A stretch of DNA of 64,000 nt from Escherichia phage vB_EcoM-673R5. Both the position numbers and the translations under genes were made by a program. This document shows, piece by piece, positions 1,659 through 53,853 of this stretch (its first letter is position 1; every line of letters starts with the position of its first letter). The notes under the pieces were generated by a model. It saw nothing but the letters and a program-made list of their open reading frames with translations, was not told where the DNA came from and made no database searches. The stretch is from the sequence record ON470615.2; one strand, given 5' to 3'.

Positions 1659-1661
1659 ATA

Positions 1662-1678
1662 TTTGCTCTAATAAATTG
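1662..1678 (+). promoter_or_regulatory. C1 repressor operator
   Basis: TTTGCTCTAATAAATTG, 15/17 match to P1 C1 operator consensus ATTGCTCTAATAAATTT. Confidence 0.55.
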
Positions 1679-1807
1679 TGTTTTTTAACTACCGATGTTA
1701 CATTGAGCCTGACCTCTTGCGCCTTGAGGCATTTTCGGTTTATGCTTATCAGGCACCTCATTAAAACGGGTGCCGGGATTGGCCTCCGCTTAAGTCTAAG
1801 GCGATAC

Positions 1808-1830
1808 AGACGCCGCTCGCGTCTTTTTTG
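1808..1830 (+). terminator. intrinsic terminator downstream of pacB
   Basis: GACGC-cgctc-GCGTC hairpin followed by T6 run. Confidence 0.45.
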
Positions 1831-1858
1831 TATCGGCGTACACGCACACCTCTACAAT

Positions 1859-1938
1859 GGTGGGCTGTATGGGGCTACCTTCGGGTAGGCTGGTTACCTT
1901 GGACGCCAGTAAGGCCAACTCCGTACAGTCCACCGCCA
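1859..1938 (+). ncRNA. c4: c4-like antisense immunity RNA, copy A
   Basis: About 80-nt tRNA-like element: 5' GGTGGGC pairs with 3' GTCCACC followed by GCCA; shares GGTGGG..ATGGGG..CTTCGG..CTGGTT..GCCAGT blocks with the element at 49637; sits just upstream of icd as in P1 ImmI. Confidence 0.45.
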
Positions 1939-1994
1939 GCAAGATTGGTCTCTTCTGCGGTGGTTACATACCAACGTCTAAGGAGGCTGCCAAT

Positions 1995-2216
1995 ATGGCT
2001 ACTATCCCTACCCCAACTCATCCTGAATTTATCTGGCGCTTTTACTCCTGCCAAAAACGTCACTATCACTTCGTTATTGCACCGACAGAAGATGAGGCCC
2101 GCTCTCAGCTTCCTGACGCCCCATGTATTTTCTCTGCCCGTTTTTCCACTGATTCACGCAATTCTCTCAGTTACTGGTGCCTCCCTGTTAACGCTTCTGC
2201 TCAGGAGGGACTATGA
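1995..2216 (+). CDS. icd: Icd-like protein, copy A
   Basis: 73-aa ORF with AAGGAGG RBS; stop overlaps ant start (ATGA); paralogous to the icd-like sequence at 49763 (shared EFIWRFYSC.K.HYHFVIA.TEDEARSQLPD). Confidence 0.6.
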   Translation: MATIPTPTHPEFIWRFYSCQKRHYHFVIAPTEDEARSQLPDAPCIFSARFSTDSRNSLSYWCLPVNASAQEGL

Positions 2217-3330
2217 GAACGTCATTAGTCACCCGTGAAGAGATGATCGAGGCAATTGAACAGCACACTGCCTGTATCAGTACCAGGGATATACCAAGCG
2301 TTATTGCCAACTACTTCATGATCACCAAACAACTTTACCGGAGAAAGGACAAGAACGCGGTTCACCGTATCCTGTTGTCTGATATCCGCGAATACCTGCT
2401 CGAACAGGGTCATCTGAATTACGCAACCGCCGCAGCCGAAGCACGCAAGGAGGCACACAGAATGAAAGCAACTAACGTTAAATCAGAAAAAATTCATGCA
2501 CCTTCAGTTCAAGAATCGGAGCTGGTGGTTGTTCAGAATCAGTCTGATGAAATTCCCGTTCTGGAATGGCAGGGAGTGCGTGTAGTGACAACCGAGACTC
2601 TTGCTAGAGGGTATGGGACAGAAACAATCCGTATTCGCCAAAATCATCATGAGAACAAAGTACGCTTTGTTGAAGGGAAGCACTTTTTCAAAGTTGAAGG
2701 AGAATCATTGCGCGAGTTGAAGCACAGAGTAGCTTTAAACTACTCTGTAAAAATTGCTCGCAATGTTCGCTCACTCACCCTCTGGACAGAACGCGGCGCA
2801 GCCGCCACGCTAAAATGCTCGAAACCGATCAGGCATGGGCATTCTTTGAAAAACTGGAAGACAGCTACTTCCGACAAAAAGAACAGCAACCGATCGCAAT
2901 CCCCCAGACGCTTCCTGAAGCCCTACGCCTGGCTGCCGAACTGGCTGAACAAAAGCAACTTCTGGAACAGAAAGCCCACCAGCTAAATCAGCAGCTGGTG
3001 GCCGCCGCTCCTAAAGTCGATTTTGCCGACCGGGTATCAGTAGCTAAAGGGATCCTGATTGGGAATTTTGCAAAGGTTGTTGGACTTAAACAAAACGCGC
3101 TGTTTGTCTGGTTACGGGAGAACGGCATCCTGATAGCGTCCGGTGGACGTAAAAATGTGCCGTTCCAGCAGTACATCAACGCGGGGTATTTCACGGTGAA
3201 AGAAGTGGTGCTGGATGATGAAGATGGCTACCAGATACGGTTGACGCCTCAATTAACGGGTAAAGGCCAGCAGTGGTTGACGCGTAAACTGCTCGATGCT
3301 GGCTTGTTAAAACCGGTGGCGGCTGAATAA
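2213..3330 (+). CDS. ant: antirepressor Ant-like protein, copy A; frame broken once near 2800
   Basis: ORFs 2213-2986 and 2815-3330 join into about 372 aa; antirepressor-like core (LTLWTERGAA / MLETDQAWAFFEKL); C-terminal KilA-C-like region near-identical to 50600-51022. Confidence 0.6.
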
Positions 3331-3335
3331 TGGAA

Positions 3336-3368
3336 GAATGCCCGGTTGATGCCGGGCATAATTTATTG
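3336..3368. terminator. bidirectional hairpin between ant (copy A) and c1
   Basis: ATGCCCGG-ttgatg-CCGGGCAT perfect 8-bp stem followed by AATTTATT. Confidence 0.45.
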
Positions 3369-3388
3369 CGCGCTTTCGGGGTTGTCGT

Positions 3389-4212
3389 TTACTGGCTGCC
3401 CCTTCTTGGTTTTACGGCTGCGCGTAACTGATGCGGCTGACTTAACCTTTTTCTCTTCGCGAGTGATGGCAATTTGTTTTTTACATTTTCAATATCTGCC
3501 AGGCGATATATTTTTGCTTGCGGCCAGCGGTCGCAGATGATCGGTTCTATGGAGTCATAAAGGCTAAATTTTGCTTTTTCGAATTCACCGTTGATGATAA
3601 TTCCATCACGAGAGAGTTTCATCGCAGATAAACACGCCACACAGTGGCACATGGTAACTAACTGATTTACCATCATTGTAGTTAGGGCTACTGGAAATGT
3701 AGTGGACGCGCAGCATTGTTTCGCTAAAGCCGTGTACGCGCATACGGAATTTTTCATCCTCCGGGTACTGCTTCATTAGCTCTTTTGTTGCTTCCAGGTT
3801 CTCTATGTATTTCGCACTGTGCTCATTGATCCCCGCGCTTTTTGGATGCGAATGTCCTTATCAATCAGATGAATAATGCGGCCAGCGGTCATGTTGACGC
3901 TGTTCACAGCTTCTGTCTGATAAGTTGTAACCTTACGCACACCGCGAAGGATGTTAGGCACTGGATATAAAATAGTCTTTGGGATATTGAGGTCTGGGTA
4001 CTGTTCCAGTTCCCGCGCCATTAAAGTCCATTTATCAATTTCAGCCTGAATGCTGTCAGTTTCTTTGAACGGTAGAACGACAACCGGGCGTACAGGACGA
4101 CCGTCGCTGGCTGTATCAACGTGTTGGGCGCGTGCAACAGCTTTTTTAGAAAGAGATCCCTGAAGCTGACGAACTCCTGGTACAGTTGTTCGCCGTAGAC
4201 ATAATTTATCAT
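3389..4212 (-). CDS. c1: C1 repressor of lysogeny; frame broken twice
   Basis: Pieces 4021-4212, 3803-4021, 3389-3757; N-terminus MINYVYGEQLYQEFVSFRDLFLKK and ...DKWTLMARELEQYPDLNIPKTILYPVPNILRGVRKVTTYQ match my recollection of P1 C1; first break falls in an A6 run. Confidence 0.75.
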
Positions 4213-4321
4213 TGATCCTCCTCCAGAATTGACATGGTCAATAACGCCCGGCTGAGAAAACCGGTCATTACTGACCTATATTATAGAGGATCAAACAAAA
4301 ATAATAGATTTATTAGTGCAT

Positions 4322-4531
4322 TTATTGTGAGTCTAACTGGTTAGTTGCCATGAGATATTCGATTGTGTCAGTGAGGTCATCCAAGTCGTCTTGGGTGATG
4401 CGGTACTCCTGATTGGATATCTTTGAGTAGTGTTCAGCAATGGCGCGGGCAGCGTCGGTTTCGGCAGGGTCTACAGATAAAGCGTTAGAGCAATGTCTAA
4501 CGTCGTCGATGGTTGGTTGAATGAAAGCCAT
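4322..4531 (-). CDS. coi: C1 inactivator Coi
   Basis: 69-aa ORF immediately upstream of c1 on the same strand; size and position as P1 coi. Confidence 0.6.
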   Translation of the reverse strand: MAFIQPTIDDVRHCSNALSVDPAETDAARAIAEHYSKISNQEYRITQDDLDDLTDTIEYLMATNQLDSQ

Positions 4532-4769
4532 AATTATGCCTCACTGTATTGACAACACAGAGCCTGAAGCTCTGACCTACTGTTTCACCCATGATCCATG
4601 CTGGGGTAATCTAACAACATTGCGCTGTGTGTAAGATGAGCAATGCATAGCTGTAATGCCGTTGTATAAGGTTTCCCTGTTTGCTCATTTCCTTCTGAGC
4701 CGCTCTACAACGCTGAAGACACATTAAATAGTGAATCCAAAGTCGTATTACGTAACGGCGGCAAAACTA

Positions 4770-4787
4770 TAATTTATTAGAGCAATT
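4770..4787 (-). promoter_or_regulatory. C1 operator (Op99-like)
   Basis: Reverse complement reads AATTGCTCTAATAAATT. Confidence 0.55.
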
Positions 4788-4850
4788 GTCAAACAACTAT
4801 GAAAAACAATCCAGTTTTTAGCTGGTGGAGTGGGATTTTTCTCCAAATTT

Positions 4851-4867
4851 ATTGCTCTAATAATTCT
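4851..4867 (+). promoter_or_regulatory. C1 operator (Op99-like)
   Basis: ATTGCTCTAATAATTCT upstream of the coi/c1 operon. Confidence 0.55.
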
Positions 4868-4910
4868 TGATTTTTGTGCGCAGCTGGACGTAAACTCCTC
4901 TTCGGACCTG

Positions 4911-4944
4911 ATAACTTCGTATAGCATACATTATACGAAGTTAT
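4911..4944. other. loxP: loxP recombination site
   Basis: Exact 34-bp ATAACTTCGTATA-GCATACAT-TATACGAAGTTAT: 13-bp inverted repeats around an 8-bp spacer. Confidence 0.97.
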
Positions 4945-4959
4945 CTTAAGGGTTATTGA

Positions 4960-5030
4960 ACATGATCAATTTACCTGTAAATCCATACAGTTCAATACCT
5001 TATCAGGTCAAATAGTGATCATTTGATCAA
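4960..5030 (+). promoter_or_regulatory. cre upstream control region with clustered GATC sites
   Basis: GATC at 4964, 5017 and 5025 plus an inverted repeat (GCGCTACG...CGTAGCGC) between loxP and cre; P1 cre promoters are Dam-sensitive. Confidence 0.3.
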
Positions 5031-5125
5031 GGTTGCGCTACGTAAAATCTGCGAAATGTTGGCAGTGTTAGTGCTCCAGATTTCGCGTAGCGCACTTAGC
5101 ACCACCAATCAATCAGAGGTGAAAA

Positions 5126-5347
5126 ATGGGATATTCAGCTGCTAAAGTGTCCACTCATCTTGAGCTTGAGAAAAACCGTGGTTACTGGCGGGCAAAAGGG
5201 TTTGATCGTGATAGTTGTCAACTGTCATTATCGCGCGGTGAAGAGAAAATAGAACGCACGCGCGGTCGCTGGCGTTTCTATGACGAGAACCATAAACAGG
5301 TAAAGGCAGAGCCGATCCTGTACACTTTACTTAAAACCATTATCTGA
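5126..5347 (+). CDS. hypothetical 73-aa protein upstream of cre
   Basis: ORF with GAGG RBS ending 8 bp before the cre start; basic small protein. Confidence 0.4.
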   Translation: MGYSAAKVSTHLELEKNRGYWRAKGFDRDSCQLSLSRGEEKIERTRGRWRFYDENHKQVKAEPILYTLLKTII

Positions 5348-5354
5348 GTGTTAA

Positions 5355-6386
5355 ATGTCCAATTTACTGACCGTACACCAAAATTTGCCTGCATTACCGG
5401 TCGATGCAACGAGTGATGAGGTTCGCAAGAACCTGATGGACATGTTCAGGGATCGCCAGGCGTTTTCTGAGCATACCTGGAAAATGCTTCTGTCCGTTTG
5501 CCGGTCGTGGGCGGCATGGTGCAAGTTGAATAACCGGAAATGGTTTCCCGCAGAACCTGAAGATGTTCGCGATTATCTTCTATATCTTCAGGCGCGCGGT
5601 CTGGCAGTAAAAACTATCCAGCAACATTTGGGCCAGCTAAACATGCTTCATCGTCGGTCCGGGCTGCCACGACCAAGTGACAGTAATGCTGTTTCACTGG
5701 TCATGCGACGGATCCGAAAAGAAAACGTTGATGCCGGTGAACGTGCAAAACAGGCACTGGCGTTCGAACGCACTGATTTCGACCAGGTTCGTTCACTCAT
5801 GGAAAATAGCGATCGCTGCCAGGATATACGTAATCTGGCATTTCTGGGGATTGCTTATAACACCCTATTACGTATAGCCGAAATTGCCAGGATCAGGGTT
5901 AAAGATATCTCACGTACTGACGGTGGGAGAATGTTAATCCATATTGGCAGAACGAAAACGCTGGTTAGCACCGCAGGTGTAGAGAAGGCACTTAGCCTGG
6001 GGGTAACTAAACTGGTCGAGCGATGGATTTCTGTCTCTGGTGTGGCTGATGATCCGAATAACTACTTGTTTTGCCGTGTCAGAAAAAATGGTGTTGCCGC
6101 GCCATCTGCCACCAGCCAGCTATCAACTCGCGCCCTGGAAGGGATTTTTGAAGCAACTCATCGATTGATTTACGGCGCTAAGGATGACTCTGGTCAGAGA
6201 TACCTGGCCTGGTCTGGACACAGTGCCCGTGTCGGAGCCGCGCGAGATATGGCCCGCGCCGGAGTTTCAATACCGGAGATCATGCAAGCTGGTGGCTGGA
6301 CCAACGTAAATATTGTCATGAACTATATCCGTAACCTGGATAGTGAAACGGGGGCAATGGTGCGCCTGCTGGAAGATGGCGATTAG
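5355..6386 (+). CDS. cre: Cre tyrosine site-specific recombinase
   Basis: 343-aa ORF starting MSNLLTVHQNLPALPVDATSDEVRKNLMDMFRDRQAFSEHTWKMLLSVCRSWAAWCKLNNRKWFPAEPEDVRDYLLYLQARGLAV; adjacent to loxP. Confidence 0.97.
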   Translation: MSNLLTVHQNLPALPVDATSDEVRKNLMDMFRDRQAFSEHTWKMLLSVCRSWAAWCKLNNRKWFPAEPEDVRDYLLYLQARGLAVKTIQQHLGQLNMLHRRSGLPRPSDSNAVSLVMRRIRKENVDAGERAKQALAFERTDFDQVRSLMENSDRCQDIRNLAFLGIAYNTLLRIAEIARIRVKDISRTDGGRMLIHIGRTKTLVSTAGVEKALSLGVTKLVERWISVSGVADDPNNYLFCRVRKNGVAAPSATSQLSTRALEGIFEATHRLIYGAKDDSGQRYLAWSGHSARVGAARDMARAGVSIPEIMQAGGWTNVNIVMNYIRNLDSETGAMVRLLEDGD

Positions 6387-49429: not shown

Positions 49430-49446
49430 AATGCTCTAATAAATTT
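49430..49446 (+). promoter_or_regulatory. C1 operator upstream of ImmI-like module
   Basis: AATGCTCTAATAAATTT. Confidence 0.5.
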
Positions 49447-49636
49447 GTATTTTTAAGTCGCGAATGCTATCTTTTCGCATCATATTGACCTTTTAATCGT
49501 TCAGGCTTATAGTTCCGCCGTCGTAGCAAATTCTGCGACCGGGTTTAGCAGCCTGAATACGGGAATGCGGACAACCGCAGATATCCGATATTGCGGAATT
49601 TTTGTGTCCGTAAAACCACGTTACGCCCGAATTATG

Positions 49637-49713
49637 GTGGGGCGTGATGGGGAGGCTTCGGCCTGCTGGTTTCATTCGTGCCAGTCTGCTAACCCCGTCA
49701 CGTCCTGCCACCC
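49637..49713 (+). ncRNA. c4: c4-like antisense immunity RNA, copy B
   Basis: 77-nt element GGTGGGGCGTGATGGGGAGGCTTCGGCC...GCCACCC; homologous to 1859-1938 but divergent in internal segments. Confidence 0.45.
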
Positions 49714-49762
49714 GTTTAGCAGCGGGGCGCAGGTTGTTAAACCTACGAATGAGGCCGTAACT

Positions 49763-49978
49763 ATGGTTAATGCCAATCCTTGCGCACGCCAAGAATTCAT
49801 CTGGCGTTTCTATTCCTGTAAAAAACACCACTATCACTTCGTTATCGCAGCAACAGAAGACGAAGCACGCTCTCAATTGCCTGATGGCCCCTGCATTTTT
49901 ACTGCCCGTTTTTCAACTAACTCGCGCAATTCACTTAGTTACTGGAGCCTCCCCTTCTCTGCCGACGTTCAGGGGGTT
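49763..49978 (+). CDS. icd: Icd-like protein, copy B (stop missing; reads in frame into ant)
   Basis: MVNANPCARQEFIWRFYSCKKHHYHFVIAATEDEARSQLPDGPCIFTARFSTNSRNSLSYW; junction at G5 run differs by 2 nt from copy A. Confidence 0.5.
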
Positions 49979-51022
49979 ATGAAAACACCTCTCGTCACCC
50001 GTAATGAAATAGCCGAAGCGATCGCCTTGCATACTGCCTGTATGCCGACACGGGAGATCCCCGGCGCAATTGCTAACTATTTCATGATAACCAGACGTTT
50101 TTATACCCGAACAGATAAGGCTGTGATCAACAGGCTACTGATAGCCGAGATCAGGGATTATTTGATTGAACAAGGACGTCTACGTTACGCAACAGTGGCA
50201 GCAGAAATGAGAAAGGAGGCACATAGAGTGACCGGTAAAAATTTGAATGTTGAGAAACCAGCACCTGTTACGTCAGCTACGCCAACACCAGCCGTGAATG
50301 TCATCCCCAACACCGGAGACACAATCGACAGCCAAACATTGTTGAAGATGGTCAATGAGGCACGCAAGTTATGTGGAGAACCAGAGGTTAGAAACAATAA
50401 ATTCATCGAAAAAATACTCGATGAACTTGAAGGTGAATTTTACACAAAAAGTGCAAAATCCCATGGCACAAGGGCTGGGCGCTCTTTTGAGGTCATCACC
50501 ATGACCTACAAACAAGCCTTGCGAGTCGCCGCGCGTGAGTCAAAAGCGGTCCGCCGTTCGCTGATCGACAAACTGGAAGAATTGCAGCAGGCAAACTCCC
50601 CTGCCCCATCGATCCCCCAAACATTACCAGAAGCTCTACGCCTGGCTGCCGAGTTGGCAGAACAGAAAATGCAGTTGGAACAGCAGCTGGTGGCCGCAGC
50701 CCCTAAAGTCGATTTTGCCGACCGGGTATCAGCGGCCAATGGAATCCTGATCGGGAACTTTGCAAAGGTCGTTGGACTTAAGCAAAACGCCCTTTTCTCA
50801 TGGTTGCGCCAGAACGGCATTCTCATGGCTTTTGGTGCGCGCAAAAACGTACCGCGCCAACAGTACATCAACGCCGGGTATTTCACGGTGAAAGAAGTGG
50901 TGCTGGATGATGAAAATGGCTACCAGATACGGCTGACGCCCCAATTAACGGGTAAAGGCCAGCAGTGGTTAACTCGCAAGCTACTTGATGCTGGTTTGTT
51001 AAAACCAGTAGCAATAGGTTAA
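49979..51022 (+). CDS. ant: antirepressor Ant
   Basis: About 347 aa from MKTPLVTRNE; C-terminal KilA-C-like domain shared with kilA and with copy A. Confidence 0.65.
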   Translation: MKTPLVTRNEIAEAIALHTACMPTREIPGAIANYFMITRRFYTRTDKAVINRLLIAEIRDYLIEQGRLRYATVAAEMRKEAHRVTGKNLNVEKPAPVTSATPTPAVNVIPNTGDTIDSQTLLKMVNEARKLCGEPEVRNNKFIEKILDELEGEFYTKSAKSHGTRAGRSFEVITMTYKQALRVAARESKAVRRSLIDKLEELQQANSPAPSIPQTLPEALRLAAELAEQKMQLEQQLVAAAPKVDFADRVSAANGILIGNFAKVVGLKQNALFSWLRQNGILMAFGARKNVPRQQYINAGYFTVKEVVLDDENGYQIRLTPQLTGKGQQWLTRKLLDAGLLKPVAIG

Positions 51023-51032
51023 CAAAAGAAAA

Positions 51033-51060
51033 AAACCTGCCAGCAAACTGGCAGGTTTCT
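51033..51060 (+). terminator. intrinsic terminator after ant
   Basis: ACCTGCCAG-caaa-CTGGCAGGT followed by TTCT. Confidence 0.5.
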
Positions 51061-51100
51061 GAGCAGATCGTCCAACCCGATCTGGATCGAGTCAGAAAAA

Positions 51101-51117
51101 TTTGCTCTAATAAATTT
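51101..51117 (+). promoter_or_regulatory. C1 operator upstream of kilA-repL
   Basis: TTTGCTCTAATAAATTT. Confidence 0.55.
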
Positions 51118-51186
51118 CGTTTTCTAAGTGCAAAGAATCACCATTTCGAGCTGGTGATTGAAGGTTGATGCAAATTTGGAGAAAAA

Positions 51187-51987
51187 ATGCAACAAACATT
51201 CAATGCGGATATGAATATATCAAACCTTCATCAAAATGTCGATCCTTCAACCACTCTGCCTGTTATTTGTGGTGTTGAAATTACGACCGACCGCGCTGGC
51301 CGTTACAACCTTAATGCTCTACACAGAGCGAGCGGACTCGGTGCCCATAAAGCGCCAGCTCAATGGCTAAGAACGCTGTCAGCCAAACAGCTCATCGAAG
51401 AGCTTGAAAAAGAAACTATGCAGAATTGCATAGTTTCGTTCGAAAACCGTGGCGGCGGCACTTTTGCCCATGAATTGCTCGCTGTGGAGTACGCAGGCTG
51501 GATTTCTCCCGCGTTTCGGCTGAAGGTAAACCAGACATTTATCGACTATCGAGCCGGAAGATTACAACCTGCTATTCCGCAGAGTCTCCCTGAAGCTCTC
51601 CGTTTGGCTGCCGACCTGGCAGAGCAAAAGCAACGGCTGGAGCAAAAAATGCTTATGGATGCACCTAAAGTCGAATTCGCCGAACGCGTTGCTACCGCCA
51701 GCGGGGTTCTAATCGGCAACTATGCCAAAGTGCTCGGCCTGGGCCAAAACTATCTCTTCACCTGGTTGCGTGATAACGGAATTCTGATCGCAACCGGTGA
51801 ACGCAGGAACGTCCCCAAACAAGAATACATATCCCGTGGGTATTTCACCCTTAAAGAAACCGTGATCGATACAAGCAATGGAAGCAGGATTTCTTTCACG
51901 ACTCGTATAACCGGCAAAGGTCAGCAGTGGCTGATGAAGCGATTGCTTGATGCTGGTGTGCTGGTACCTGTCGCGGCAACGCGCTAA
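51187..51987 (+). CDS. kilA: KilA
   Basis: 266 aa; KilA-N-like N-terminal half and KilA-C-like C-terminal half (IPQSLPEALRLAADLAEQKQRLEQ...TGKGQQWLMKRLLDAG). Confidence 0.75.
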   Translation: MQQTFNADMNISNLHQNVDPSTTLPVICGVEITTDRAGRYNLNALHRASGLGAHKAPAQWLRTLSAKQLIEELEKETMQNCIVSFENRGGGTFAHELLAVEYAGWISPAFRLKVNQTFIDYRAGRLQPAIPQSLPEALRLAADLAEQKQRLEQKMLMDAPKVEFAERVATASGVLIGNYAKVLGLGQNYLFTWLRDNGILIATGERRNVPKQEYISRGYFTLKETVIDTSNGSRISFTTRITGKGQQWLMKRLLDAGVLVPVAATR

Positions 51988-52016
51988 CAGACGTAGTAAG
52001 AACCACCAGCATTGTA

Positions 52017-52861
52017 ATGCTGGCTAAAGTCACTTTCCTGAGCTGTATAACGATGAGCGATTTTACTTTTTCTGGCTATGAATTGGCCTGCTTTGTAACA
52101 CACTCCGGTCTATCCCGTAGCGCCGGGCATATCCTGTCGCAATGTGCAAATCTCGCGGCAACAACCAGTGAATACTTCATTCACAAGCCTCACCGCCTGA
52201 TCGCGGCAGAAACTGGTTATAGCCAATCAACCGTCGTTCGTGCATTCCGTGAAGCTGTAAACAAAGGAATCCTGTCTGTAGAGATTGTTATCGGCGATCA
52301 CCGTGAACGTCGCGCTAACCTGTACCGGTTTACACCATCCTTTTTGGCCTTCGCACAACAAGCCAAAAATGCGCTGATTGAAAGCAAATTAAAGATCTCT
52401 TCAGCGGCAACCAAGGTTAAAGCTGTTCTCGCTAAGACATTGGCTTTATTTAATTTTTTATCCACACCCCCATGTCAAAATGATACCCCCTCCCCTGTCA
52501 GGATGACGTGGCAATAAAGAATAAGAAGTCACAAGTTAAAAAAACAAAAAGATCAGTTTCCGGCGGTGCCGGAACGAGCAGACTCAAAAAATTGACTTCA
52601 TGGATCGCTGAGACAAAAGCAAAGGCTGACAATCTGCGGTTATCCAAAAAACGCGCACAAAAACATGAGTTCAAGCAGAAAGTAGAGGCGGCAGCGCGGA
52701 AATATGCTTACCTGAAGAACAAGCGTTCTCCTGATATTGGCGGGGTATCAAACTTCGATAATTTGCCGCATTGCATGACGGTAAACGAAGCTCTTAATGC
52801 GGTTTTAGCCAAAAATAAAGATAACGAAAAATGGGGTATACCGGCAGGATTCAGAGGGTGA
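52017..52861 (+). CDS. repL: RepL lytic replication protein; one frameshift near 52510
   Basis: ORFs 52017-52517 and 52508-52861 join to about 281 aa; follows kilA. Confidence 0.6.
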
Positions 52862-52881: not shown

Positions 52882-53337
52882 TCACCTGGCGTTTTCAGTT
52901 TGAGGTCGGAGATGCAATCTGATTTTTTACAGTTAGCGATCGCTTTTGCAGGATATGTTTGTATTGGCTTCTGTGTATACATGATCAGCCGAAAAATGCT
53001 TGTCGATATCGACCGCAAAGAACGAGCAGAGAGATCTTAGTATGGATTTTCTTTGGCGCGGTCTGGCCATTAGGGATCATGTTTGCTGCAACATTTCTTC
53101 TGATGTGGATATTCACCCTTCCAGGTGATTTCTATAGAAAAAAGCCAGACATTGATACAATCGCTGCGGGTGCTTGAGGCTATCTGCTTCAGGCATTACC
53201 CGACAAGCAGATAGAAGAAAGCCCCAGATAACATTACGCGTCCTGCAAGACGCTTAACATTAATCTGAGGCCATATCTATGCTTAGCATACGTAGATTAG
53301 CCCTCTCCCCTTTTTAGGAGCAAGGAATTTTTTACTG

Positions 53338-53853
53338 CTATGCCGCCTTTCCAATTATGGATTCAGCGACCAGAACAACCCCATGCTTACTTCGATCTGG
53401 GTGTTCACTCCATATCTCGGATTCAGGAATACTTACCCCGTCATAGCAAACACGTTCGCCGTCAAACGGGTAATACTGAGCGGCATCGGTGTCGAGGATA
53501 AACACTTTTAGCTCGGAAGAGCGACGGGCGATGTGTTGCCAAAGAGCTTTTCCACCTTCGTATTGCTCATTATCACTGAGCAAAACAACACCAGCTTTTG
53601 AGGCTACGGTTTCGTAAACAAAAGTAGCTAAACCGACATCCCGGACGGTTCCATCAACCACGATACCTTCAATCTGGGCAACATCGCTATCCTCCCAGAA
53701 CTTCCTTACCAGTACGCCTTCAAGCTGCGGGCGACGTTGAAGTTCAAGAGTAGCGACAACCTTATGGCGCATATCACCATCGATAACAGAAGGCGCAGCC
53801 TCTATTACAGCTGCAAATGGGGTTTTGGAATCCCATATAACCTGGTAAAGCAC
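53338..53853 (-). CDS. hypothetical 171-aa protein
   Basis: Clean ORF, no recognised motif. Confidence 0.4.
   Translation of the reverse strand: MLYQVIWDSKTPFAAVIEAAPSVIDGDMRHKVVATLELQRRPQLEGVLVRKFWEDSDVAQIEGIVVDGTVRDVGLATFVYETVASKAGVVLLSDNEQYEGGKALWQHIARRSSELKVFILDTDAAQYYPFDGERVCYDGVSIPESEIWSEHPDRSKHGVVLVAESIIGKAA

Follow-up and report, generated by a model that had tools for sequence, protein, structure and literature searches.

What occupies the interval between the terminase gene pacB and the repressor gene c1 in Escherichia phage vB_EcoM-673R5, and what could it do there? The DNA analysed (record ON470615.2), a stretch of 64,000 nucleotides here called the window, derives from a P1-like phage-plasmid in which pacA and pacB end at position 1658, and c1, coi, loxP, and cre span about 3360 to 6386, downstream of the interval. 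In P1 and P7, the stop codons of pacB and c1 are separated by a spacer of ~25 bp, and the gap in SJ46 is also only ~25 bp; sequence comparison indicates that this spacer is substituted in the window by positions 1659 to 3363. An earlier note on the same DNA had described two paralogous modules, each with a c4 antisense RNA, an icd-like gene, and an ant antirepressor gene, and had called for this interval to be compared among phages. Both modules were found, with two Rfam C4 matches, two 73-codon icd-like open reading frames (ORFs), and two Ant genes encoding a KilAC domain. One lies in the canonical ImmI-kilA-repL region (49430 to 52500). The other, judged from its sequence, is a complete second ImmI-type module and an insertion relative to P1, P7, and SJ46. 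Its order is C1 operator, promoter, IsrK-family leader with sites a1 and b1, c4, sites a2 and b2, icd-like gene, and ant (plus strand throughout, unless stated otherwise). We regard it as quite likely that positions 1659 to 3363 are a second self-contained, C1-repressible c4/ImmI-type antirepressor operon. The basis is computational and consists of the parts and their order, RNA fold, complementarity, covariation, conservation of the coding sequences, and evidence that the frameshifts are artefacts.

The c4-type antisense RNA of this module has a predicted mature form at 1859 to 1937, assigned from an Rfam match, the minimum free energy (MFE) fold, and covariation. Rfam C4 antisense RNA (RF01695; gathering score, 45) is found twice in the window, at 1853 to 1940 (75.9 bits) and at 49630 to 49715 (71.9 bits), and the pacB-c1 copy spans the full model (positions 1 to 87). 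The MFE is −41.8 kcal/mol for the pacB-c1 c4 (z = −4.06 relative to shuffles) and −41.5 kcal/mol for the canonical c4 (z = −4.16), and both RNAs take a three-helix shape with a long closing stem and two internal hairpins, like the c4 RNAs annotated in P1 and P7. The c4-like fold expected of the element at 1859 to 1938 was thus borne out by the covariance model as well as by the fold. Among 32 distinct c4 relatives, 97.8% of stem cells are paired, compared with 36 to 49% in slid controls, and compensatory double changes are found in 16 of 27 pairs. The b′ loop, CCUUGGACG, occupies 1897 to 1905, and the a′ single strand, AGGCCAA, occupies 1912 to 1918. The 3′ tail is GCC (1935 to 1937), and A1938 completes a GCCA after the closing stem; by analogy, this tRNA-like acceptor end would suit the predicted excision by RNase P. 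The two c4 copies had been said to differ in internal segments, which holds for a′ and b′, but most stem positions also differ, with compensation.

In P1, sites a1 and b1 are annotated upstream of c4, a2 just downstream of it, and b2 over the ribosome binding site (RBS) of icd. Sites complementary to the pacB-c1 c4 stand at the homologous positions, with cognate duplexes of −8.8 to −13.9 kcal/mol. The a1 site, TTGGCCT (1779 to 1785), is complementary to a′ (duplex at 1775 to 1786, −11.6 kcal/mol) and covaries with a′ in all 29 of the cassette types described below. The b1 site, GTCTAAGG (1794 to 1801), is complementary to the b′ loop (−12.4 kcal/mol). Downstream of c4, the a2 site, TTGGTCT (1945 to 1951), is complementary to a′ with one G·U pair (−8.8 kcal/mol), and the b2 site, CGTCTAAGG (1975 to 1983), is complementary to the b′ loop (−13.9 kcal/mol; shuffle fraction, 0.003). 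The b2 site overlaps the Shine-Dalgarno sequence of icd, AAGGAGG (1980 to 1986), and b2 stands before GAGG in those cassette types whose listed b2 match extends that far.

The recognition elements of the two modules are different: AGGCCAA (a′) and CCUUGGACG (b′) in the pacB-c1 c4, and CUGCUAA (a′) and UCAUUCGU (b′) in the canonical c4. Each c4 has contiguous complementarity to its own a1, b1, a2, and b2 only, and cross-module matches are at chance level. One candidate for cross talk, the pacB-c1 a′ with a GGCC at the RBS of the canonical icd (−8.8 kcal/mol), involves only 4 bp, which is also at chance level, and was rejected. Because a′ and b′ differ between the modules and pair with their own sites only, two orthogonal immunity RNAs are predicted, and the element would make two c4 RNAs that are mutually blind (heteroimmune). 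The suggestion in the earlier note of two heteroimmune ImmI systems agrees with this, as a prediction from sequence.

Control by C1 is suggested by an operator, TTTGCTCTAATAAATTG, at 1662 to 1678, 4 nucleotides (nt) past the pacB stop codon, which agrees with the 17-bp C1 consensus at 15 of 17 positions. There are 10 such matches in the window, compared with 0.33 expected by chance; this one is a single base off the operator at 51101 to 51117 and aligns with P1 Oc4/Op51. On this evidence, a C1-controlled operator is present at the module promoter, with binding predicted. A putative sigma-70 promoter at 1676 to 1704 has a −35 element, TTGTGT (1676 to 1681), a 17-nt spacer, and a −10 element, TACATT (1699 to 1704). 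The operator and the next ~50 bp align with P1 Oc4/P2c4, and the −35 and −10 elements match the annotated elements of P2c4, this homology alone being the ground for the assignment.

The promoter is followed by a leader RNA of the IsrK family (1753 to 1829), which comprises a first hairpin, a second hairpin whose loop presents a1, a linker with b1, and an intrinsic terminator. The terminator scan places a terminator-like hairpin at 1808 to 1824, followed by a T run to 1829, and termination here is a prediction. The leader scores 49.5 bits against Rfam isrK (RF01394), just under the gathering score of 50, because a C is missing at 1785; the window lacks that one base and two more in the T run. 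The corresponding scores are 60.8 bits in NZ_CP027133, 60.2 bits in RCS47, and 59 bits in JL22. The Rfam c4-a1b1 leader is found at the canonical copy only, and the a1 hairpin of the IsrK-type leader is similar to it in form.

The icd-like gene (1995 to 2216, 73 codons), taken from the ORF list, matches NCBIfam NF033153 (49.8 bits; cut-off, 25) and shares 81% identity with the canonical icd across 63 aligned residues. Its stop codon overlaps the ant start codon in an ATGA at 2213 to 2216, in the arrangement claimed for this copy in the earlier note. The ant gene (2213 to 3330) would encode an Ant1-type antirepressor of 372 amino acids when intact; in the window as given, it is split into two ORFs (2213 to 2986 and 2815 to 3330). 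An Ant2-type internal start consists of a Shine-Dalgarno sequence, AAGGAGG (2447 to 2453), a gap of 8 nt, and an ATG at codon 84 (2462 to 2464), in a context conserved with P1, which indicates nested in-frame Ant1 and Ant2 starts whose use is predicted. Between the convergent ant and c1 genes, the terminator scan also detected a GC-rich terminator-like hairpin (3338 to 3359, no strand assigned), which lies within the inserted segment, immediately ahead of the c1 stop codon.

Pfam identifies ORF6N (PF10543; 70.1 bits) at residues 116 to 202 of the pacB-c1 Ant and KilAC (PF03374; 107.9 bits) at residues 260 to 361, whereas the canonical Ant has KilAC without ORF6N. In the comparison of the two proteins, identity is 64% over residues 1 to 83, 27% in the middle, which is unrelated, and 90% over the C-terminal ~140 residues. 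It had been stated that the N-terminal regions differ and the C-terminal domains are nearly identical; the second part stands, but the divergence is in the middle rather than at the N terminus. Among slot variants, the ratio of nonsynonymous to synonymous substitution rates (dN/dS) is 0.02 to 0.09 for icd, a sign of strong purifying selection, and 0.33 to 0.40 for ant, which is less constrained than icd. Judged from the sequences, the c4 RNA, the sites that it targets, and the two proteins very likely all function in the lineage, and the second module as a whole is probably functional.

Several observations weigh against reading this segment as a working, C1-directed ImmI-type operon. A sigma-70 consensus scan gave no plus-strand promoter in the leader, so that the promoter is weak by consensus, and there is no Rfam c4-a1b1 (RF03163) match at the pacB-c1 leader, even at an E value of ≤1. 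The leader fold is no better than shuffles (z = −0.97), and the duplex energy of a2 on its own is not significant (shuffle fraction, 0.24). The leader and a2 assignments rest on covariation, not on folding or duplex energy; a2 occupies a conserved position and follows a′ across cassette types. With respect to the proteins, the middle domain of Ant is ORF6N and not the N-domain of P1 Ant2, and the window copy as given has the ant frameshift plus a base missing beside a1 and would be defective if these were real.

Taken at face value, the last point would make the segment a decaying remnant, in which the frameshift at ~2801 and the base loss near a1 are genuine, at most the c4 works, and there is no second antirepressor. 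The split of ant and the drop of the isrK score below the gathering score would fit such decay. However, similar single-base run-length differences are found elsewhere in the window. Compared with NZ_CP027133 over the first 6.4 kb, 12 positions differ, representing 10 events, and 9 of the 10 are indels, mostly in the length of T, C, or G runs. The nearest plasmids are 99.7% identical to the window, and the break near 2800 to which the earlier note had drawn attention is, in comparison with them, a run-length difference, with CC in the window and CCC at 2801 in NZ_CP027133. In comparison with NZ_CP027133, single-base T-run deletions at 3476, 3838, and 4141 and an inserted A at 3611 split the essential c1 gene (3389 to 4212, minus strand) into three ORFs. 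In the canonical copy, icd reads in frame into ant at a G5 run (49972 to 49976), as had been noticed; NZ_CP027133 has G7 there, with which icd ends in a TGA overlapping the ATG of ant, in favour of the assembly error suspected at the time.

Because a plasmid prophage with a c1 broken three times is implausible and could hardly survive, the frame breaks are read as long-read assembly errors. The breaks in ant and c1 and the fusion of icd to ant are, from these comparisons, almost certainly such errors, which indicates that the whole window derives from an unpolished long-read assembly. Furthermore, ant is intact in NZ_CP027133, RCS47, and JL22, all close relatives among the matches listed have intact module genes, and these genes are under purifying selection. 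A decaying remnant is therefore very unlikely.

The ORF6N domain bears on a different question. Since the middle of the protein is of this type, C1 may not be the target, or not the sole target, of the module Ant, and whether an ORF6N-bearing Ant would still target C1 is the main uncertainty in the proposed mechanism. In that case, the cassette would not be aimed at P1 C1; the ORF6N-KilAC protein could instead inactivate the repressors of other resident prophages or act on the host, in the manner of AnrP, as a weapon in inter-prophage warfare. Besides the absence of ORF6N from the canonical P1-type Ant, this would agree with the lack of a C1 operator in 81 of 127 sampled IsrK-c4 cassettes and with the frequency of the cassette in Shiga toxin (Stx)-converting phages, where it lies upstream of Rha/antirepressor genes. 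AnrP of the Salmonella prophage Gifsy-1 works on the circuit of its own prophage (PMC4825925). However, the versions in the P1 slot have a C1 operator and a P1-type promoter, and their Ant retains the P1-specific Ant1 N-terminal extension (64% identical), the internal start for Ant2, and a KilAC domain with 90% identity to that of the canonical protein. The module also directly adjoins c1. We therefore consider a target other than C1 rather unlikely.

The resemblance between the two modules could also mean that the pacB-c1 copy is a drifted intragenomic duplicate of the canonical ImmI with no independent specificity. The gene order is the same, the operator and promoter are similar, and the identities of icd (81% over 63 residues) and of the Ant C termini (90%) are high. 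However, the leaders belong to different Rfam families (isrK rather than c4-a1b1), the two c4 RNAs are unlike in their stems as well as in a′ and b′, and the middle of Ant is unrelated. Synonymous sites have diverged to saturation relative to the canonical copy (dS, 1.3 to 2.1), and the leader plus c4 is ~79% identical to the IsrK-C4 cassettes of lambdoid and Stx-converting prophages, in which such cassettes are abundant. An origin by drift of a duplicate is scarcely credible on these grounds, and both simple duplication of ImmI and, as described above, pseudogenisation were rejected. By its sequence affinities, the module is a mosaic, acquired by recombination, of a P1-like operator and promoter, icd, and Ant ends, an IsrK-C4 leader and c4, and an ORF6N Ant middle. 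The leader and the c4 appear as a coupled pair: in 14 of 14 sampled loci, every Rfam isrK match is followed by C4 24 to 62 nt further on.

Heteroimmunity between P1 and P7 is a textbook case of immunity specificity set by an antisense RNA. In these phages, heteroimmunity is determined by c4, which prevents the translation of ant at the RBS (PMC12197685). In the C1-repressible operon that we propose, RNA processing, translational repression, translational coupling, binding of Ant to C1, and the immunity phenotype would follow the examples of P1/P7 and Gifsy-1. Transcription would start just past the C1 operator, and C1 would keep it low in the prophage. The IsrK-type leader would display a1 and b1 as decoy sites and could terminate transcription early, and c4 would be excised from the read-through transcript, by analogy with RNase P processing in P1. 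The b′ loop and a′ strand of c4 would then pair with b2 and a2 on the same mRNA species and cover the icd RBS. Because icd overlaps ant by ATGA, blocked icd translation would also block synthesis of the Ant1- and Ant2-type proteins. On entry into a cell without the cognate c4, Ant would be made and would antagonise C1. A prophage with both c4 types would silence an incoming ant of either type. For an infecting phage, at least one Ant would be made in any cell whose resident does not have both c4 types.

The module shares with P1/P7 ImmI a C1 operator overlapping the promoter, a c4 of 77 to 79 nt with the same three helices, and one upstream and one downstream site for each recognition element, with the downstream b site over the icd RBS. 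The 73-codon icd, its ATGA overlap with ant, the nested Ant1/Ant2 starts, and the C-terminal KilAC are also common to both. Unlike P1/P7 ImmI, it lies between pacB and c1 and not between the sim genes and kilA-repL, and it has an isrK-type leader, a stronger intrinsic terminator, other a′ and b′ elements, and an ORF6N Ant middle.

The closest parallel for the leader is the isrK-orf45(STnc1160)-anrP operon of Gifsy-1, which likewise combines an IsrK-family leader containing a Rho-independent terminator, an ~80-nt RNA, and a coupled small ORF and antirepressor gene. There, termination in the leader yields the IsrK small RNA (sRNA), which acts in trans, read-through RNA is processed to STnc1160 (~80 nt), and the antirepressor is translated only if the small ORF is, through an AUGA overlap (PMC4825925). 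We suggest that STnc1160 may be a C4 RNA and that IsrK may activate by sequestering it through a1/b1 sites. Unlike Gifsy-1, the pacB-c1 module has a P1 C1 operator and P1-type Ant N and C termini, and its small protein is a conserved 73-codon Icd-like protein, whereas the Gifsy-1 ORF has 45 codons and a variable sequence.

The authors of the IsrK work drew an analogy with the seqA/CI system of P4 and called SeqA a structural homologue of IsrK (PMC4825925). As in P4 CI RNA immunity (seqA/seqB/seqC), a processed small RNA would pair both upstream and downstream on its own transcript. Unlike here, the P4 system is described in PMC4825925 as acting by premature transcription termination of the replication genes, and no icd or ant is described there. 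A second c4-plus-icd region has been reported in D6-like plasmid prophages (pYU39_89; PMC6799933). The present window resembles pYU39_89, a P1-related plasmid prophage, in having a pair of c4-icd regions but differs in phage group and location, and no ant was reported there with the second copy.

The earlier note implied that the pacB-c1 module was new, which is not the case. Databases already hold the module in many records, and its family is a known one. It is common, is annotated in RCS47, and was published as lying between pacB and c1 by Venturini et al., who noted ant plus two ORFs there, with mention of RCS47, and icd-ant homologues in another region of pSvP1 as well (PMC6906374). The segment is present at a coverage of at least 80% in 268 PLSDB plasmids, and of the 593 PLSDB records with a pacB tail, 260 have the segment directly after it. 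Among 5,426 complete E. coli genomes, 279 carry the segment. The phages RCS47 and JL22, pTZ20_1P, and many P1-like plasmids have it in the same slot with the same gene order, at 89 to 99.7% nucleotide identity. It is common but not universal, in that it is missing from P1, P7, SJ46, and phiW39.

The published and database annotation of the slot names no RNA gene. No searchable paper identifies the c4 in the slot or the dual specificity, although Gilcrease and Casjens (2018) and Lobocka (2004) may discuss the slot. RefSeq/PGAP places a pseudo “ash family protein” coding sequence exactly over the slot c4, for example, in NZ_CP033882.1 (locus L129, 501 to 614), and a few GenBank records of Stx phages, such as LC710660.1, label “isrK” and “C4 antisense RNA” side by side. 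In some P1-like plasmids, such as NZ_CP038378, NZ_CP021336, and NZ_CP173116, three to four separate places match the module, and there may be a third module site. Eleven loci that appeared to have the C1 operator without pacB turned out to represent this slot, the end of their pacB having diverged, and a third insertion site was not established by them.

Does the second module carry one fixed specificity? RCS47 and JL22 have the same module in the slot with other a and b specificities, and all three copies of each site have changed together. Their a set is GAGAC/GUCUC/GAGAC (a1/a′/a2), and their b set is GTCAAAGG or GCAAAAGG with CCUUUGAC or CCUUUUGC. A scan of IMG/VR with a conserved 19-mer of the leader gave more than 120 loci. 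The c4 sequence pattern recovered 127 of 130 cassettes, and these 127 were analysed. They fall into 29 (a,b) types, drawn from 9 a-types and 25 b-types, in which a1/a′/a2 and b1/b′/b2 covary. In 27 of the 29 types, the cognate b′ pairs over at least 8 contiguous nt with both b1 and b2, compared with a mode of 5 to 6 nt for non-cognate combinations; cognate a pairing covers 7 to 8 nt, compared with a non-cognate mode of 4 to 5 nt across the 29 types.

The 43 slot modules that were sampled show five (a,b) specificities. Two of the a-types and two of the b-types occur in all four possible pairings, and these four share an otherwise identical c4 backbone. The recognition sites are interleaved along the DNA in the order a1-b1-b′-a′-a2-b2. 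Each switch needs coordinated change at three interleaved sites, and a single crossover would therefore be insufficient.

Exact matches to the leader 19-mer in genome contigs numbered only 17 loci, several of them in implausible metagenome-assembled genomes, and Gifsy-1 was not retrieved. The contigs concerned (L130 to L140) are labelled Ruminococcus, Rhodobacteraceae, Thioclava, Bdellovibrionota, and Acidobacteriota and probably represent contamination or mis-binning by E. coli phage-plasmid DNA; the 17 loci were accordingly left out of account for host range. Some IMG/VR prophage contigs have two to three tandem isrK-C4 units ~850 nt apart (L065, 3038 to 4934; L073, 3931 to 5826; L055, 1123 to 1725). 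The tandem units differ in b specificity, two units of L065 have the same c4 core, and the arrangement resembles an array of immunity RNAs. We also found a gene for DicF, a cell-division-inhibiting sRNA (RF00039), 200 to 350 nt from an isrK-C4 cassette in two prophage loci (L007, 4747 to 4798; L077, 3936 to 3985), where it neighbours an icd-type module.

The canonical ImmI module (49430 to 51022) is 96.5% identical to P1 ImmI and occupies the usual position upstream of kilA-repL. Its parts are an operator (49430 to 49446), the c4-a1b1 leader (49507 to 49559), c4 (49636 to 49712), icd (from 49764), and ant (to 51022). The a′ of its c4 equals that of P7, and its b′ differs from those of both P1 and P7; the module has its own matching sites, including a b2 at 49743 to 49755 that matches b′. 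This combination of a′ and b′ adds a third ImmI specificity to those of the classical locus and is common to phage vB_EcoM-813R1 and several plasmids. The canonical b1 (49559 to 49568) reads ACGGGAATGC, where a 99.7%-identical relative has ACGAATGC, and the two extra G residues weaken the b′-b1 pairing to −6.2 kcal/mol. This pair of G residues is less typical of homopolymer error than the other differences are and could be real. Downstream of repL, an Rfam match to the sok antitoxin RNA (RF01794; 89.7 bits) at 53168 to 53342 suggests a hok/sok-type addiction module.

As a tentative idea, which we think has more against it than for it, the pacB-c1 spacer of P1-like phage-plasmids may serve specifically to house a second RNA “immunity barcode” that can be exchanged. 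If so, new specificities would frequently be selected as related plasmid prophages compete in an arms race, possibly with templated copying among the three sites, direct and inverted, by gene conversion or template switching. Two orthogonal locks would then confer broader immunity together with broader defeat of the immunity of relatives.

In roughly four of every ten sequenced P1-like plasmids, c1 appears to have a second, orthogonal c4-icd-ant operon next to it, and resistance genes are present on many of these plasmids. Under the present labels, a pseudo “ash family protein” for the RNA gene and hypothetical ORFs plus ant for the module, the regulatory nature of the operon goes unrecognised. 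The window also holds a practical lesson, in that apparent pseudogenes can be homopolymer errors of long-read assembly. The most interesting remainder is evolutionary, as the slot holds at least five specificities whose switches need coordinated changes. If the second operon functions as proposed, predicting coexistence, exclusion, and induction among P1-like phage-plasmids would require knowledge of two RNA specificities.

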